From Candidatus Hermodarchaeum yapensis (GTDB taxonomy: Archaea; Asgardarchaeota; Hermodarchaeia; Hermodarchaeales; Hermodarchaeaceae), in the NCBI GenBank assembly GCA_016840405.1, contig JAEOSK010000006.1:1-64000 (forward strand): 64,000 nt of DNA, written 5' to 3'. Below the pieces are notes generated by a model, which ran no database searches, was not told the origin of the DNA, and saw only the letters and a program-made list of their open reading frames with translations. The position numbers and the translations under genes were made by a program. Of the stretch, positions 11,823 to 54,282 are shown in pieces; position 1 is the first letter of the stretch; each line of letters opens with the position of its first letter.

Positions 11823-13250
11823 GTGAACTACCCCTGCTTTCATGCAGTGGTTTCCATCGAGTCCTCTACCCGGGGAACATGGGGGAGGGCTGTGTGTCGA
11901 TGTAAGCCATGCAAGAAAGCTTGTAATGGCTCCCCGTTTACTGGGGGTTGCTGCAATAGGAACCGCACCATAAGGTTTACTGCGGCATTCTGATCTCGAT
12001 TAAAGGGGGTTCCACAATCGCATTGAATAAGACGTTCCGATAACTGACGATCTCGAACCGTGCCACATACACAGCATCTCTTGGTTGCCTGCGTCTCGTC
12101 AATTCTTATCACTCTTTTACCTACTTTCTTGGCTTTGTAGGTCAAGAATTGGACGAATCGCCCCAAGAAGTCGGTGTTCTGGATAGAATGATGTAGTGTT
12201 CGAGTTGCTGCATCCTGTCGCCGACACCCCGACACTTGTTTTTTCCGCGCCATCTGTTTCACCACGAGATTCCCAACGATGATCGTGTTAGCCCGAGTAT
12301 TCATAACCACTGACTTGGAAATTTTATGTTGAAAATCCCGTAACTGGTTAGCCAGTTTCCGTCGCATCTTCAGCAATTTTCGCTGATAGAACCACCATCG
12401 ATTACTAGATTCTCGACAATGATCGCGTCGCGATTGTACTTCTCGAAGTTTGTCTTTCCAGTACAGGTCCGGACGACGATTGCGAATTTGGACGAACTTT
12501 CCCTGTGGGTTCACTGCCGTGACCAAATTGATCACCCCCAAGTCAATGGCTTGATACCGTCCATTGTCTACATATGGGGGAACTGGCACCTCGCAGGTGA
12601 TGGCGACAAACCATCGACGTCGTTGATCTTGAAAGATTTCCACCTGCTTGATTCTACCGCTTAGAGGTGGTAACTAAGATAACGCAAACTCAAGTTCAAC
12701 TCCCGAAGGATGACGGTGGGCGAAACGAATCTTCTGGTGATCAACATCAAATACAAATCCGGATTGATTATAGCACAATGTAGTAAAGTAGTGTTTGCCC
12801 TTACAGCGGGGAGGTCGGGCTTGGATATCGCCGCGATGCCAGCAGGCGAAGAACGACTTGTAATCGGCATCGAGACGTCGTAACACCATTTGCAGGACCT
12901 TTGAATAGACCCAGGCATATTCGGGATATTTTACTTTGAGAACAGGCAGGAAATTTTGTTGTTGTATGTACGTGATGTAGATGCGCTCGGTCTTCGGTTT
13001 CGTACGATTGGTTGCCCACCGTTGGCGTCTTTCGGCAAGGGCAAAGTTGTAGAGAAGGCGACATTTTTCGGATAACGCCCACAAGACATGGGCTTGTTCC
13101 GGCGTAGGAGCTATGCGGATTTTTCGTGTCAGCAGCATCCGGGTCATGGAACAATAAAAAAGTCATCGGCGTTTTTCAGTCTGTGGGAGAGGTGCTGATA
13201 ACTATTGGGCGATTCTTCTCCGCCTTGAAAAATGGGGACTTCTTGGCAAA
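11823..13250 (-). mobile_element. Non-autonomous IS200/IS605-family element (tnpB only)
   Basis: Minus-strand right end reads ...GAAACCACTGCATGAAAGCAGGGGTAGTTCAC (hairpin + TTCAC). A left-end-like hairpin CCAAGAAGTCCCC...TCAAGGCGGAGAAG follows TTTAT near 13250. Left boundary approximate. Confidence 0.8.
11840..13147 (-). pseudogene. tnpB: TnpB interrupted by an in-frame TAG at 12674-12676
   Basis: The two track ORFs share a frame (TCT TAG TTA CCA...CAG GTG). Motifs LYNFALAERR, AIDLGV, CCVCG..CDCG, NRDQNAAVN. Confidence 0.88.
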
Positions 13251-32594: not shown

Positions 32595-33885
32595 GTGAAC
32601 TACCCCGCCCTGAAGCTTGGGGCTTCCTGCTTCGACGCTTCAGCCAGTGCTGACAGCTCCACAGGCTCTTCCCGAGGTTCCCTCGGTGCCATGATGGATC
32701 GTAATCCTATCATCTTGATGTTTTGGGCAGCGTTAGAGTCCCGATCATGCTGCTTATGACACTTAGGACAGGTCCATTCTTTTTCTGAGAGAGTTAACGC
32801 GTTATACTTGAAGCCACAGGCTGAGCAGAGCTGGCTCGTTGCCTCGAACCGCCCTAACGTTATGAATGTCACGCCATACCACTCAGCCTTATATTTTAAC
32901 ATCCTGTGAAAGCTAGCCCACGCCGCGTCTGAGATATGTCGTGCTAGTCTACGGTTTCGGATTAAACCTTGTACATTCAGGCTCTCCATTATGATCGCTT
33001 GGTTCTCGCGTATCAGTCGTGTTGAGAGCTTCTGTTGAAAATCCACACGCTGGTTAGTGACGCGCTCATAGCATCGTGCAAGCCTCAGTCTAGCTTTCGT
33101 TCGATTTTTTGATCCCTTTTTCTTTCTACTCAGTCTTTTGTGAAGACACCGTAATCTCATGAGCGCGCACCGAAGGTGCCTGTGATTATCGATTTTCTCA
33201 CCACCCGACAAGGTGGCATATGTGGTGATACCGACATCAATTCCAATCGAACTCTTTGTAGTGACTCTTCTCTTCCTGGGAGGAGATTTTCCATCCTCGA
33301 CCACAATAGAGATGAAGATCTTGCCAGTGTTGGTTGAGACAACGGTGCACGTTTTTGGAATGCCCTCAAATCTTCGATGAAAGACGGTTTTTACTTGACC
33401 AATCTTTGGTAGTCGCACTCTTCGGGTATCAAAGTCGACTGTAAAGAATTGTGGGATATCAAAGGACTGTCTGTGTTGTTTTCTACTCTTGAATTTAGGA
33501 TATCCGTACCTTTTTTCATCGTGATTGGCGCGTTGAAAGAAATGTTTGAAAGCTAGGTGGAGCCGCTTGACTGCCTGTTGGAGGGACTGGGAATTGACAT
33601 GCTTAAGAAATGGATGGTCCTGTTTAAGTTGTATGAGGAGGTGGTTCAGGTCGTACCAGCTCAGACTCTTGCCGTCCTCATCATACACACGCATCTTTGT
33701 TTCTAGTGCCCAGTTATAAACGAACCGACAGGCATCCGTGTTTTTCCGAATTCGTTCGCGCTGAATCTTGTTTGGATACAAACGATACCTGTAGGTTCGC
33801 AGTATATGATTAGGTTTCTCAACGGGCTATTCGAAGATCTTGATTCACTCCCCACCAGAAAGAAGGGTTCTTCACGAGATTTTAT
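32595..33885 (-). mobile_element. IS200/IS605-family element (tnpB only)
   Basis: Minus-strand right end GAAGCCCCAAGCTTCAGGGCGGGGTAGTTCAC; left-end-like hairpin around 33845-33880. Left boundary approximate. Confidence 0.8.
32600..33805 (-). CDS. tnpB: RNA-guided endonuclease TnpB
   Basis: (I)LRTYRYRLYP, CRFVYNWAL, RuvC motifs GIDVG / MESL / DRDSNAA, zinc finger CSAC..CPKC. The expected start position is ATA rather than ATG. Confidence 0.9.
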   Translation of the reverse strand: MLRTYRYRLYPNKIQRERIRKNTDACRFVYNWALETKMRVYDEDGKSLSWYDLNHLLIQLKQDHPFLKHVNSQSLQQAVKRLHLAFKHFFQRANHDEKRYGYPKFKSRKQHRQSFDIPQFFTVDFDTRRVRLPKIGQVKTVFHRRFEGIPKTCTVVSTNTGKIFISIVVEDGKSPPRKRRVTTKSSIGIDVGITTYATLSGGEKIDNHRHLRCALMRLRCLHKRLSRKKKGSKNRTKARLRLARCYERVTNQRVDFQQKLSTRLIRENQAIIMESLNVQGLIRNRRLARHISDAAWASFHRMLKYKAEWYGVTFITLGRFEATSQLCSACGFKYNALTLSEKEWTCPKCHKQHDRDSNAAQNIKMIGLRSIMAPREPREEPVELSALAEASKQEAPSFRAG

Positions 33886-49458: not shown

Positions 49459-51018
49459 TTGCCATTTCAGATTGATCTCATTATTCATAATGTTAACATC
49501 ATCACCATGGATCCTGCTATGCCTAGAGCTGAAGCGATGGCGGTTACGAATGGACGGATTATCGCGCTTGGCTCAGAGGAGGAATTGAAACCGCTTTTTG
49601 AGAATGCCAAAGATATCATTGATGGAAAAGGCCATACGGTGCTTCCGGGATTCATTGACACTCATGCCCATTTGGCTGGACTTGGTCGCAAATTATTTCA
49701 CCTGGATCTTGGCGACACTACATCCGCAGAAGAAGCTATTCAATTAGTTGGAGAACGGGTGAAAAAGAGTCCACCTGGTAAGCTCATATTAGGTTACAGC
49801 TGGGATGAAAGCAAATGGACAACTCCTCGTTACATAACAAAAGATGACCTAGACCTGATTGCTCCTGATAATCCAATCGTGTTGATTCGAGTTTGTGGTC
49901 ATCTAGTAAGCACAAATTCAGCAGCGCTTAGGCAATTAGACATTGATGCAACGCATCCAGGAGTTGACAAAGACAATGACACTGGTGAACCAACAGGAGT
50001 TCTCCGGGATATTCCCATTGATACTAGGAAATTAGAAACCGATGAGGAAGATTTGGCTCAATCTATTATTGCTGCATGTCACTTCGCAAACAGCGTTGGT
50101 GTCACATCCGTACATGAGAATCTATACCGCCAACAGTTACAAACCGTTGCAGCGTTCATTAAAGTCCGACAAGCACAACAACTTACCGTGAGAGTGTATG
50201 CCAATCTTGAAACTCAACTATTGGATAAGCTTGCAGGGCTAGGCTTACCTACCGGACTAGGAGACGAATACTTCAGGTTAGGCGGTGTGAAGGTTTTCAT
50301 AGATGGATCCTTCGGAGCCCAAACCGCAGCACTTTCTCAACCTTACCAAGACCACTCAGAATCTGATGGCCTCCTACTCTTCGATGAAGAGGATTATCGA
50401 TTTCTTCTCAAAACTGCCAACCAATTGGGGCTCCAAGTGAGTACTCATGCTATCGGTGACCGGGGGATTGACATGGTTTTGAGAGCGCATGAACAAGTGA
50501 GCAAAGCTAAGTTCGTGAAAGAACTTCGGCACAATATCATTCATGCTGAATTTCTTACACAACCGTTAATCGACCGAGTGAAAAAGTTGGATATACTTTT
50601 ACTCCAACAACCGAATTTTGTGCATCGATGGGGACTCCCCGGAGAGATGTATTATTCCCGTCTGGGCCCGGAACGTGCTCAGCAATTAAACAATTTCCGG
50701 AAAATTTTAGATGCCGGTATCAAAATCGCGTTTGGATCTGATTGTATGCCGATGGACCCGATTTATGGAATCTATTCGGCTGTGACACACCCTAACCCTG
50801 CGACGCGAATTACTGTGGAGGAGGCAATTCGACTCTATACTGCTGATGCAGCATATGCCAGTTTTGAAGAACAAGATAAAGGAACGCTTGCCCTCGGAAA
50901 ACTAGCTGATTTCATACGCATTTCCGGAGATCCCTTCACCCTGAAACCTGAGAACTTACGGAATTTGAAAGTACTTGAAACCTATGTTGGTGGACGTCAG
51001 GTCTTTTCAAGTCTCTAA
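49459..51018 (+). CDS. Amidohydrolase (YtcJ/Amidohydro_3-like)
   Basis: PGFIDTHAH, KVFIDGSFG..TAAL, HAIGD, GSD, GKLADF. Confidence 0.9.
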   Translation: MPFQIDLIIHNVNIITMDPAMPRAEAMAVTNGRIIALGSEEELKPLFENAKDIIDGKGHTVLPGFIDTHAHLAGLGRKLFHLDLGDTTSAEEAIQLVGERVKKSPPGKLILGYSWDESKWTTPRYITKDDLDLIAPDNPIVLIRVCGHLVSTNSAALRQLDIDATHPGVDKDNDTGEPTGVLRDIPIDTRKLETDEEDLAQSIIAACHFANSVGVTSVHENLYRQQLQTVAAFIKVRQAQQLTVRVYANLETQLLDKLAGLGLPTGLGDEYFRLGGVKVFIDGSFGAQTAALSQPYQDHSESDGLLLFDEEDYRFLLKTANQLGLQVSTHAIGDRGIDMVLRAHEQVSKAKFVKELRHNIIHAEFLTQPLIDRVKKLDILLLQQPNFVHRWGLPGEMYYSRLGPERAQQLNNFRKILDAGIKIAFGSDCMPMDPIYGIYSAVTHPNPATRITVEEAIRLYTADAAYASFEEQDKGTLALGKLADFIRISGDPFTLKPENLRNLKVLETYVGGRQVFSSL

Positions 51019-51999
51019 TGGCCGCTTCCGCATCAAAAATGCAGTCGTTTCTTGAAGGTTAGGAAATAGCGTTTGGCCAGGCTGTCGGGATACTCGTAAA
51101 GCAGCTACCGCATTGGCGAAGACTGCAGCCCGACCCATAGTGGCTCCAGAAATCATACTCACAGCAAAGCCAGCATCAAAGGCATCACCGGCCGCTGTAG
51201 TATCCTGAACCTCAACATCGAAGGCAGGTATATGATGTTGATCACGTTTTGTTGCTAACAAACAGCCTTTCTTGCCTAGTTTTACTACGAGAGCAGGAGC
51301 TCCAGCTTCGATGAGTAGTTGAGCTCCTTTCCGTGGACTACGCTCACCTGTTAGCGCCTTGACTTCATCACCATTTGGAAAAAACACATCAACAAATTGA
51401 AGAATTTCTTTTACCTCTTCAACAGTATCGTCTGACCAGTCAGCAGGATCCCAGCCTGTGTCGAAAGATGTTGTTGCTCCCCGTGATTTTGCTAGTTTTA
51501 ATAATTCTACTAAAGGTCGACCTTGAAGAGCATCTAGAAGGTGATACCCAGCTAAATGAACCCATCGCGGTGGTGGATCTTGTTTGAGACATACTTCAAG
51601 GTCATCCAGTTGGAGTTGGGCGTTCGTTCCTTTGAAGGTGACAAAAGCCCGTTCACCATCTTCGCGTATCATGGCAATTGTGACTCCTGTCGAGGAATCC
51701 TCGGCGAGTCGTAAGCATTGAGTATCGACATCAACCTCTCGAAAAGCTTTCAACACGACTTCGCCAAATTGGTCAACCGCTAGACGACCTGCAAATCCTG
51801 TTTTGACACCAAGGCTAGCCGCACAAAGGGCAAAATTCGCCGCAGATCCTGCAGCCCGAGTCAGCATTTCAGGCACAACAACTTCGCGACCAAAACCTGG
51901 CATCTTTTCCAATTGTGGAAATACAAATTCAGCATTTGCATCCCCAATTGCCAATATTTGTACTACCGTCGGGATGACCACTCTTTTTTGCTGATTCAT
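51007..51999 (-). CDS. PfkB-family carbohydrate kinase
   Basis: AGSAAN, D.FG, FFPNGDE, VKLGKKG, DTTAAGDAFDAGF. Confidence 0.9.
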   Translation of the reverse strand: MNQQKRVVIPTVVQILAIGDANAEFVFPQLEKMPGFGREVVVPEMLTRAAGSAANFALCAASLGVKTGFAGRLAVDQFGEVVLKAFREVDVDTQCLRLAEDSSTGVTIAMIREDGERAFVTFKGTNAQLQLDDLEVCLKQDPPPRWVHLAGYHLLDALQGRPLVELLKLAKSRGATTSFDTGWDPADWSDDTVEEVKEILQFVDVFFPNGDEVKALTGERSPRKGAQLLIEAGAPALVVKLGKKGCLLATKRDQHHIPAFDVEVQDTTAAGDAFDAGFAVSMISGATMGRAAVFANAVAALRVSRQPGQTLFPNLQETTAFLMRKRPLET

Positions 52000-52044
52000 T
52001 TTTCTGACCCCGTAACCAACTCTAAATGTTGAGTGGACTAAGTA

Positions 52045-52345
52045 TTGACATTCTCCACGATTGAAATCGGGAGATTTGTGGATTTATGATACTCCAAAGG
52101 GTATGCCACCACCCTGTTACCCAGTTCCACCTCATGACCGTGCTAGCTGATTCGCCACCGAATCCGTGAGCGCAGTCATCACGGGTGCAAGCCCTATTCT
52201 AGCGAGGGGTCGTTGCTTTGCGGTGAAGAATAGTCCGCTGCCTGTTAAGAGGGGTTGCCGTGGTGTTGAAAGACACGCCAGGTGGGATAAGGTTTATTAT
52301 GTTCCCTTGGAGACTGCCAAATCTTCAGCGGCTCACCGCACTAGC
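52045..52345 (-). ncRNA. Candidate structured RNA ending in an IS200/IS605 right end (stand-alone omegaRNA-like element)
   Basis: Minus strand ends AATCTCCCGATTTCAATCGTGGAGAATGTCAA; several perfect stems; TTTATATA at 52368-52361; no tnpB ORF. Confidence 0.55.
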
Positions 52346-52481
52346 TTTTTAGCGTGAATCTATATAAACGCCGCGGCGATAAATCAACCCGAATAAATGC
52401 GATGCCCTGATCGCTAAAGTTAGCCTAATATTAATATTGGGAATATCCGCTCCGCTTACTCGGCTAAAAGAAGAAGGGGAT

Positions 52482-52513
52482 GAACGCTCTTGCCTGTTGG
52501 CAATGAGGCGTTC
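52482..52513 (-). terminator. Hairpin downstream of alba
   Basis: On the minus strand, GAACGCCTCATTGCC-AACA-GGCAAGAGCGTTC followed by CCCCTTCTTCTTTT. Confidence 0.5.
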
Positions 52514-52592
52514 TCACCTGCCGGATTGGCTTTCAAGCGATATCTGATTGTTTGGTTGATTCGTTGTTCGTAGATGGCACTTAGACCTGTTT

Positions 52593-53033
52593 CTACCCGC
52601 GAACCAATGTGATTTCCATAGCTGAGACGTTTGCGACGTTACCCTCTGCAGTTTTGACTTGTTCAGTGGAGATCTCAATTTCGCTGACGACAAGATCAGT
52701 CATGAAGCGATTTCGGAGAACTTCAGCTACGTCCACAGCACGACTGATGGCTCGACCACGCGCTTTAATGACTAGTTCCTCTGGATTTCGATTGAGTTGA
52801 GTAACACAAGCAGTAATGTAGCTCATTAGCGGTTTACTGCCCACGAATACGACGCTTTCATCACGCCGGGTCTTTGGTGCTTCAGCCTTTTTCTCCTCTT
52901 TCTTCGGAGCTTTTTCGGCCTTTGGTTCTTCAGCTTTCACTTTTTCAGCTTTGGGTTCTTTTGCTTTGGGTTCTTTTGCTTTTTTAGTCTCAGCAGACTT
53001 GGATTCTTTAGACATTTTGGATATTTCCTCCAT
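52593..53033 (-). CDS. albA: DNA/RNA-binding protein Alba with N-terminal Lys/Glu/Ala/Pro-rich extension
   Basis: VFVGSKPLMSY, IKARGRAISRAVDVAE, NVSAMEITL. Confidence 0.95.
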   Translation of the reverse strand: MEEISKMSKESKSAETKKAKEPKAKEPKAEKVKAEEPKAEKAPKKEEKKAEAPKTRRDESVVFVGSKPLMSYITACVTQLNRNPEELVIKARGRAISRAVDVAEVLRNRFMTDLVVSEIEISTEQVKTAEGNVANVSAMEITLVRG

Positions 53034-53202
53034 CTCTGGTTGTATTGTATTCTAGTTTCACCAGATTGTCTTGTGACCTATTGCAGAAGGAGTTAGAAAC
53101 CTCCTCCGCAATATTGGTGAGTGGAATCGATACTCTGGCTATAACTTTAAAATGTTTGGTTTAACCCCGATTTTCGTGACTTCAAGGAGAGAGCCAATTT
53201 GA

Positions 53203-54282
53203 TTAATCAAAACTTTGACGTTTTCGCCAAAGAACTAATAGAATCAGCACAATTACAACTATAACAAGAATCATTAATGCAAAAATGAGGGGTAAAAACC
53301 ACGGATCCGTTACTCGGAAAATGGTGGGGGCAACCAGTTGTTTTTGTACGAAAGCTTCAACGACTCGTCCTACGGCTTCTAAGGATTCAGGTGAGCACTT
53401 ATCGGGCGTATCCTCTAAAGTGTGCCATGGAGGATAATCAAAGTCAATAATATCAATAGCGGGAATTCCTGCCCTCAAGAATGGGCGATGATCATCACCG
53501 ATGTTATAGCCAGGAACATCGAGAAACACATCATCATATTGAAGATCTGCCGCAATTTGCCAAATGGCATTGACGAGGGAGGGGGTAGAACTGAGCTCGT
53601 GTTTCAATTGTAAATCTGCATCACCCATCATATCAAGAAGGACTGCTGCCTGGATGTTGTTTTTCTGATACTCCGTTAGACTGTTCACGTAATAGGTTGA
53701 TCCAACAATATAGTCCCATCCATTCCAATTTCCTGAATCCTCGGCATCAACAAAGAGAAGAGTGACTGCGTTTTGTGCCCCCTCAGGAAGAACACAGGCT
53801 AGCTCAAGAAGTGCAGCGACACCACTGGCGCCGTCGTTAGCCCCTAGAATTGGTTGTGCCCGATTTTCCAAGTTTGAATCCATATCAGCTATGGGTCGAG
53901 TATCGTAATGAGCAATTAATACATAACGTGGTGAGCTACTCGCACCTGCGATAATATTACGAAGCGGCGTATCCAAGTGTGTCCAAGTTTGCCTTTGTAT
54001 GTTCCAACCTTGGTTTTCCAGTGATGCAATAATGTAATCGCCACAAGCCGTAAGGTTGCTTGAACCCGGCGGACGTGGACCAAAGGCACATTGATCTTCT
54101 AAATATGTGAAGGCGCGAGTGCCGTTAAATTCCAAACAACATTGTTGCGGAAGAATTGAATATTCATTAACGGCTGTGAATTCTTTTGATGAATTCACTG
54201 GAAGTGGGAGAAGCAAGAGTGTCAGTAATACAACCATTGTGAAGACAATAATCACCGAGTGAGATTTTGAATGACGGTTCAT
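53203..54282 (-). CDS. M28-family peptidase / glutaminyl cyclase-like, membrane anchored
   Basis: Signal helix; AHYDTRP, GANDGASG, DAED, DMMGD, DDH, WHTLEDT; C-terminal TM plus RKR. Confidence 0.88.
   Translation of the reverse strand: MNRHSKSHSVIIVFTMVVLLTLLLLPLPVNSSKEFTAVNEYSILPQQCCLEFNGTRAFTYLEDQCAFGPRPPGSSNLTACGDYIIASLENQGWNIQRQTWTHLDTPLRNIIAGASSSPRYVLIAHYDTRPIADMDSNLENRAQPILGANDGASGVAALLELACVLPEGAQNAVTLLFVDAEDSGNWNGWDYIVGSTYYVNSLTEYQKNNIQAAVLLDMMGDADLQLKHELSSTPSLVNAIWQIAADLQYDDVFLDVPGYNIGDDHRPFLRAGIPAIDIIDFDYPPWHTLEDTPDKCSPESLEAVGRVVEAFVQKQLVAPTIFRVTDPWFLPLIFALMILVIVVIVLILLVLWRKRQSFD

Follow-up and report, generated by a model that had tools for sequence, protein, structure and literature searches.

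A probable protein-less miniature IS200/IS605 transposon with a candidate internal promoter upstream of pfkB in Candidatus Hermodarchaeum yapensis

TnpB omegaRNAs derive from the right end of the element, with the flanking DNA as the guide. IS608 of Helicobacter pylori, the type element of IS200/IS605, encodes both tnpA and tnpB, inserts 3' of TTAC without duplicating its target, has a right end in which an imperfect hairpin with one T bulged out precedes the final TCAA, and excises seamlessly. The criteria for PATEs were laid down in Haloquadratum and haloarchaea (Dyall-Smith et al. 2011, PMC3119063): these elements are too short for a transposase, lack terminal inverted repeats, cause no target duplication at their short oligonucleotide target, carry near-terminal palindromes related to IS605-type tnpB elements, and occur as heterogeneous copies; one of them, HqIRS71, keeps part of the tnpB C-terminal coding region as non-coding DNA. 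PATEs often encode omegaRNAs, which TnpB must then use in trans (Meers et al. 2023, 10.1101/2023.03.14.532601).

We analysed a 64-kb stretch of DNA from Candidatus Hermodarchaeum yapensis (64,000 nucleotides, hereafter the window) and found a 380-bp element upstream of pfkB that shares every one of these PATE features, including the non-coding tnpB remnant of HqIRS71, its own left-end palindrome being weak. In contrast to the haloarchaeal PATEs, it resides in a non-halophilic archaeon with eukaryote-like genes, and it has a conserved internal TATA box and a structured 5' domain of ~150 nt without counterpart in tnpB elements. With IS608 it shares the insertion 3' of a TTAC-type target, the absence of a duplication and the TCAA end behind an imperfect hairpin with a bulged T; unlike IS608 it encodes neither tnpA nor tnpB, and having no TnpA it is not an autonomous IS200/IS605 element. 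Like TnpB omegaRNAs, it has a right-end scaffold that shows homology to the sequence overlapping the tnpB 3' end, stops at TCAA and has the flank in guide position, and as with omegaRNA-bearing PATEs the matching target is the empty donor joint next to TTAC and TnpB is needed in trans. Unlike the described omegaRNAs, this one is predicted from sequence, is accompanied by no intact cognate TnpB in the assembly, and is predicted to start from its own promoter rather than to be processed from a tnpB mRNA. The element belongs to a known kind and is not a new RNA class: we consider it highly probable that it is a complete protein-less miniature IS200/IS605 transposon (PATE), derived from an IS608-like, tnpB-only insertion sequence and equipped with an omegaRNA module and a candidate internal promoter.

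The insertion between alba and pfkB

The genes alba (53033 to 52593) and pfkB (51999 to 51007) both lie on the minus strand, and the element sits between them in a region holding no minus-strand ORF of at least 40 aa. With its 380 bp and no gene inside, the element is too short for a transposase; it has no conserved ORF, the reading frames vary from copy to copy of the gene-less element, and a Pfam search of the ORFs spanning the gene-less copies returned nothing.

We compared positions 51900-53100 with congener pfkB loci by BLAST. The closest relatives are the sister species G002 and G005, whose PfkB proteins are 95% and 92% identical, respectively. In both of them the flanks are joined at an empty site, which reads ...ATAATTAC/TACTTAGTCC on the minus strand, that is, TTAC/TACTTAGTCC. 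In the junction alignment of the same strand, the relatives have ...ATAATTAC/TACTTAGTCCACTC..., and the window has ...ATATTAG/GCTAAC..., the 380 bp of the element, and ...GGAGAATGTCAA/TACTTAGTCCACTC.... The stretch from 52424 (left end) to 52045 (right end) on the minus strand is the whole gene-less IS200/IS605-type element, and its ends, GCTAAC... and ...GTCAA, are not inverted repeats. The earlier note had described an orphan right end fused to another element; what we found instead is a whole mobile element, with its left end present, that is absent from the sister-species site. The hairpin with TCAA that it had placed ~45 bp upstream of pfkB does exist (52074 to 52045, 45 nt ahead of the pfkB ATG at 51999), and both the homology of the copies and the empty site identify it as the true boundary. 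The features of the locus are as follows.

52045..52424, minus strand: gene-less IS200/IS605-type element (PATE), 380 bp, missing from the orthologous pfkB-alba spacers of G002 and G005
52425..52428, minus strand: target tetranucleotide 5' of the left end, TTAG here, from the junction comparison; TTAC in the empty sites and at both other copies
52370..52424, minus strand: left-end region; the MAFFT alignment has a block GAGAAAG-hairpin-ATGAAT in common with the G010 and C14b tnpB elements
52361..52368, minus strand: TATA-like box TTTATATA, an archaeal promoter candidate; GTTT(A/T)TAT in three of three copies
52228..52340, minus strand: 5' RNA domain, a stem-loop plus a small hairpin in the alifold consensus, only in the three gene-less copies
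52122..52193, minus strand: long imperfect stem-loop of 26 pairs (90-100% paired), its tip being the GATTCG/CGAATC hairpin (52149-52164)
52079..52115, minus strand: two small right-end-core hairpins, AGGGUG/CAUACCCU and UGGA/UCCA, common to tnpB-linked right ends
52052..52074, minus strand: subterminal right-end hairpin TCTCCCGAT-TTCA-ATCG-T-GGAGA with a bulged T (DNA fold z -3.39)
52045..52048, minus strand: terminal TCAA, the right-end cleavage site; the homology of all copies stops there and the empty-site junction agrees
52029..52044, minus strand: 16-nt would-be guide flank UACUUAGUCCACUCAA, ordinary host DNA that follows TTAC in the G002 and G005 empty site

The more distant congeners G010 and G013 also lack the 380-bp stretch, as judged from spacing. 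Four assemblies of the same species, obtained from different samples, all carry the element, and their pfkB-alba spacers differ by a single SNP.

These comparisons also bear on the idea of a new host structured RNA, for example one like RNase P or MRP, which the G+C-rich, ORF-free and hairpin-dense nature of this stretch beside alba might suggest. This has next to no chance of being right: an Rfam search of positions 50000-54000 at E<=1, which the earlier note had called for, gave no match, there are no orthologues at syntenic sites, and the insertion is missing from every relative examined, which rules out a host RNA gene. RNase P RNA itself (RF00373) was likewise ruled out, the archaeal RNase P RNA of this genome being located at C17:9705-10091 (166 bits).

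Further copies and tnpB-carrying kin

The genome assembly (G000; 2.7 Mb, 86% complete) contains two further full copies, at C14:129807-130179 (373 bp, hereafter C14a) and C65:73499-73879 (381 bp, hereafter C65). Relative to G002, both are clean insertions after TTAC, with gtTTAC before C14a and ttTTAC before C65. The C14a site is also empty in G005, the contig of which stops before the C65 site; the C65 copy (L003:1505-1885) is an insertion relative to G002, G010, G011 and G013. No target duplication was found at any of the three gene-less copies, all of which are inserted 3' of a TTAC-type target; the pfkB copy has TTAG where the empty sites, C14a, C65 and G010 have TTAC. Downstream of C65, at a distance of 66 nt and on the same strand, is a class-II aminoacyl-tRNA synthetase gene. 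C14a (L002:1282-1654) has a ThiN-domain gene on one side and a convergent Ras-family small GTPase gene on the other, and it points into the 3' end of the latter.

A right-end nhmmer profile found exactly five copies in the genome, namely the three gene-less ones and two directly downstream of tnpB genes, C27 and C14:94.6-95.9 kb (C14b). The subterminal right-end hairpin type is likewise confined to these five in the genome, all at right ends of the same family, and their homology ends immediately after TCAA. This agrees with the original reading of the locus as IS605-derived, with an IS608-like hairpin and TCAA end and with a 3' part homologous to tnpB 3'/right ends. The proposed search for tnpB genes with the same right end was also productive, yielding C27 and C14b in the genome and tnpB-linked right ends in the relatives G010 and G002; the G010 tnpB element is likewise flanked by TTAC. 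The assignment of the copies to an IS605-type tnpB family rests on right-end and left-end homology. The right-end hairpins of all copies fold well, unlike the left ends, where a palindrome is clear in C14a (the best-kept left-end hairpin, TCCCCG...CGGGGA), reduced to a different 5-bp palindrome, GCGAT/ATCGC, in the pfkB copy, and not evident in C65.

The three copies have diverged strongly, with identities of 35-52% (left end), 54% (5' domain), 62-72% (long stem) and 72-80% (right-end core). Since copies that are 54-80% identical all seem to be younger than the split from G002 and G005, a single recent burst does not explain them. Such diverged yet young copies imply either that they came from a source pool that is diverse and unsampled, or that the relatives have repeatedly lost insertions by seamless excision.

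To what extent the element is tnpB-derived differs along its length. With the tnpB-linked right ends (C27, C14b, G010 and G002), the match of the full-length nhmmer profile is limited to its last 76-85 positions. On its right-end side, the gene-less element has homology to tnpB-carrying members throughout the final ~85-150 nt. The stem base ATAGGGCTTGC...GGAAGTCGGTAAC has its homologue in the 3' coding end of the C14b tnpB; the block ATAGGGCTTGC...GGAAGTCG(G/T)TAAC, which closes the long stem of the gene-less copies, is recognisable in that coding end, where the enclosed stem beside the core is ~45 nt shorter than in the gene-less copies. The refuting result that the earlier note had named, an element that is only a decayed tnpB 3' end, therefore describes the last ~150 nt and not the 5' ~150 nt, which have no tnpB similarity as DNA or protein.

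We confirmed the minus-strand TATA-like box that had been pointed out, TTTATATA at 52368 to 52361: the block GTTT(A/T)TAT is kept in all three full copies, with a surrounding identity of just 57-68%, and the tnpB-carrying relatives have no TATA-like box at the equivalent place. This box, together with the next ~150 nt, is confined to the three gene-less copies. Neither BLAST nor nhmmer found a counterpart of the 5' domain in tnpB elements, and when the element was compared by blastx with every stop-to-stop ORF in the genome, no similarity to TnpB or any other protein emerged. A covariance model of the 5' domain (R1), run on 19 genomes of the family and 150 of the phylum, recovered only the three copies of this genome. 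A strict middle-domain pattern applied to public genome and metagenome contigs returned chance bacterial matches plus two contigs 100% identical to copies of this genome, which probably come from its source metagenome, and the right-end pattern had no matches in viral contigs. Two origins for the 5' half were tried and dropped: a decayed coding tnpB, for which there is no similarity at the DNA or protein level, and the start-codon region of the cognate tnpB, a brief likeness to which failed on alignment.

Another gene-less derivative of the same family was observed in the congener G009 (C62; L061:1155-1580). It has a left-end-like hairpin and an unrelated interior, and of the coding sequence for the TnpB C-terminus it keeps a short piece, together with an intact right end. 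Protein-less forms therefore seem to have arisen more than once.

Fold of the predicted RNA

All six pairs of complementary strings listed in the earlier note are present at the plus-strand positions that it gave; the fold built from them mostly does no better than chance. Only the GATTCG/CGAATC hairpin is conserved, being 100% paired in the three copies, and three of its pairs differ on both sides. The pseudoknot and the long-range helices proved specific to the pfkB copy and were rejected as family features. The five helices other than the hairpin are largely unpaired in the other two copies: they are paired in 54-72% of the cells of the three-copy alignment, a figure that counts the reference copy, which is fully paired by construction. 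By RNAduplex, the long-range TGCGGTGA+CCGCTG helix, a complementarity of 14-15 bp between 52219-52240 and 52326-52340, reaches -27.2 kcal/mol with a z of -4.45 in the pfkB copy, against a z of ~0 in the other two. The single-sequence minimum free energies are in no way unusual, with a z of -1.23 for the pfkB copy, and of -2.65 and -1.37 for the other two.

The RNAalifold consensus differs from that first fold and consists of a 5' stem-loop plus a small hairpin, a long stem-loop and three terminal hairpins. In the 5' domain, 86% of the cells are paired and six pairs are changed on both sides, compared with one to three when partners are slid. In the 3' domain, which comprises the long stem-loop (52193 to 52122) and the three hairpins up to TCAA, 94% of the cells are paired with 10 compensatory pairs, compared with one to three when partners are slid, and none of 500 shuffles reached 10. 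Six of the 26 pairs of the long stem-loop carry compensatory changes. For the right-end core with its three terminal hairpins, we used an alignment of nine sequences (A4) that includes tnpB-linked copies not used for deriving these hairpins: 93% of the cells are paired, with eight compensatory pairs against one to three after sliding. The AGGGUG/CAUACCCU and UGGA/UCCA hairpins are 98% and 87% paired in these nine sequences, with five compensatory pairs, and the subterminal hairpin is 95% paired with three. These covariation figures are based on three full copies and nine right-end sequences, with the consensus fold derived from the same sequences on which it was tested; the signal is good, but so small a set makes the statistics weak and falls short of what R-scape-type analysis needs.

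As TnpA needs only the subterminal hairpins, compensatory changes in the long internal stem point to selection on an RNA during the divergence of the three lineages. The omegaRNA-type scaffold is recognisable in the element: it is homologous to the tnpB 3'/right end, stops at the TCAA boundary and has the flank in guide position.

Present state, neighbouring genes and proposed life cycle

The genome holds ~30 tnpB loci. Within the window, tnpB loci were observed at 32603-33826 and 11843-12673, including one intact-looking TnpB of 408 aa. Several tnpB matches of the genome carry in-frame stops of all three kinds, for which reason they look like pseudogenes rather than recoded genes. Both cognate tnpB genes of the genome are pseudogenes: C14b (C14:94646-95839) has lost its start, has two in-frame TGA codons and shows a D to G change of the first RuvC aspartate (RuvC-I; AFVGLGV, against AFIDIGV in C27), and C27 is interrupted by in-frame TAG codons at two places. 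The G000 assembly contains no intact cognate TnpB, and all other TnpBs are at most 31% identical to the cognate type. Homologues closer to intact are held by G010 and G002, the one in G010 being two same-frame ORFs one codon apart. No Y1 (HUH) TnpA domain (PF01797) turned up in any part of the assembly, which is 86% complete. Considering the dead cognate tnpB genes, the failure to find tnpA, the change of TTAC to TTAG and the weak left-end palindrome, the pfkB copy is probably stranded and immobile now.

The same facts favour an inert fossil, that is, a deletion remnant of a tnpB element that has no present function and whose stems record past selection in an active family, and so does the single-sequence fold, which is not unusually stable (z -1.23). 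On the other hand, all three copies, although diverged, have kept the TATA box and the RNA-type stems intact. The element is also fixed, being identical in the four conspecific assemblies, but a neutral recent insertion predicts that too. We regard the fossil as a genuine possibility, if a doubtful one, and it departs from our best explanation on present activity alone.

The 16-nt flank bears on another proposal of the earlier note, a guide RNA acting in trans. Such a stand-alone RNA would send a nuclease, or else a TnpB relative with a dead nuclease, to another locus, and the omegaRNA-like scaffold, the candidate promoter of its own and the ~28 further tnpB genes of the genome are in keeping with it. 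However, the would-be guide is simply the insertion flank and equals the empty site of the relatives, as expected for any IS605 element. In the genome it has no other match at up to two mismatches, the matches at three mismatches are not credible, and no second target lies next to TTAC. Moreover, the right ends of the other tnpB genes are unrelated, the nhmmer profile finding only the five copies. We therefore hold a stand-alone guide to be very improbable.

There is no oligo-T stretch from the TATA box to pfkB, so the predicted transcript probably reads into this gene, and the pfkB copy may matter mainly via its effect on pfkB transcription. This leads to an exapted promoter and leader, in which the TATA box of the element would drive pfkB, or at C65 the class-II aminoacyl-tRNA synthetase gene, with the structured RNA as the 5' leader. 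Congruently, two of the three copies lie upstream of a same-strand gene (45 and 66 nt from the ATG), and the insertion parts pfkB from an AT-rich block, AATATTATAATTAC, which is located ~55 nt upstream of the ATG in G002 and G005. Yet the third copy points into the 3' end of the convergent GTPase gene, the downstream genes are mutually unrelated, and the placement can be accounted for by TTAC targets in AT-rich promoter DNA. A TATA-like CATTTAGA ~25 nt before the pfkB ATG may also serve instead. When 51999-52044 is compared with L069:2488-2532 of G002, the 45 nt before the pfkB ATG differ markedly (CAACATTTAGAGTTGG here, CGACAACCAAGGTGG in G002), and they differ from G005 as well; this change creates the TATA-like CATTTAGA, possibly a replacement promoter that arose after the element had displaced the AT-rich block. 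Overall, we judge the exapted leader decidedly unlikely as the whole explanation.

Returning to the miniature transposon, its life cycle would be as follows. The conserved internal TATA box would start an RNA of ~300 nt near 52340, which would run past the right end into the flank and so be an omegaRNA made without a tnpB gene or a tnpB transcript. A Y1 TnpA acting in trans would excise the element in single-stranded form, and a cognate TnpB, likewise provided in trans, would take up the RNA and cleave the empty site after its rejoining (TTAC plus flank), whereupon recombination would restore the element.

More speculatively, the three copies could be RNA-only parasites of the IS605 type, forming a lineage that acquired an archaeal promoter plus an additional structured 5' domain of non-tnpB origin, made an omegaRNA free of tnpB mRNA, and hijacked the TnpB and TnpA of other elements; once stranded, they would have been co-opted to transcribe pfkB and the aminoacyl-tRNA synthetase gene, whose native promoter spacing they had disrupted. 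We offer this scenario tentatively and consider it rather unlikely to hold in full.

The locus documents omegaRNA-bearing PATEs in an archaeon with eukaryote-like genes, and its clean pairs of empty and filled sites define the TTAC and TCAA junctions for the tnpB family concerned. If the internal promoter is real, the element would be a natural case of a guide RNA uncoupled from its nuclease gene. As such it would bear on how TnpB guides became separate genes en route to CRISPR-type systems, and would show such insertions rewiring the promoters of neighbouring genes.
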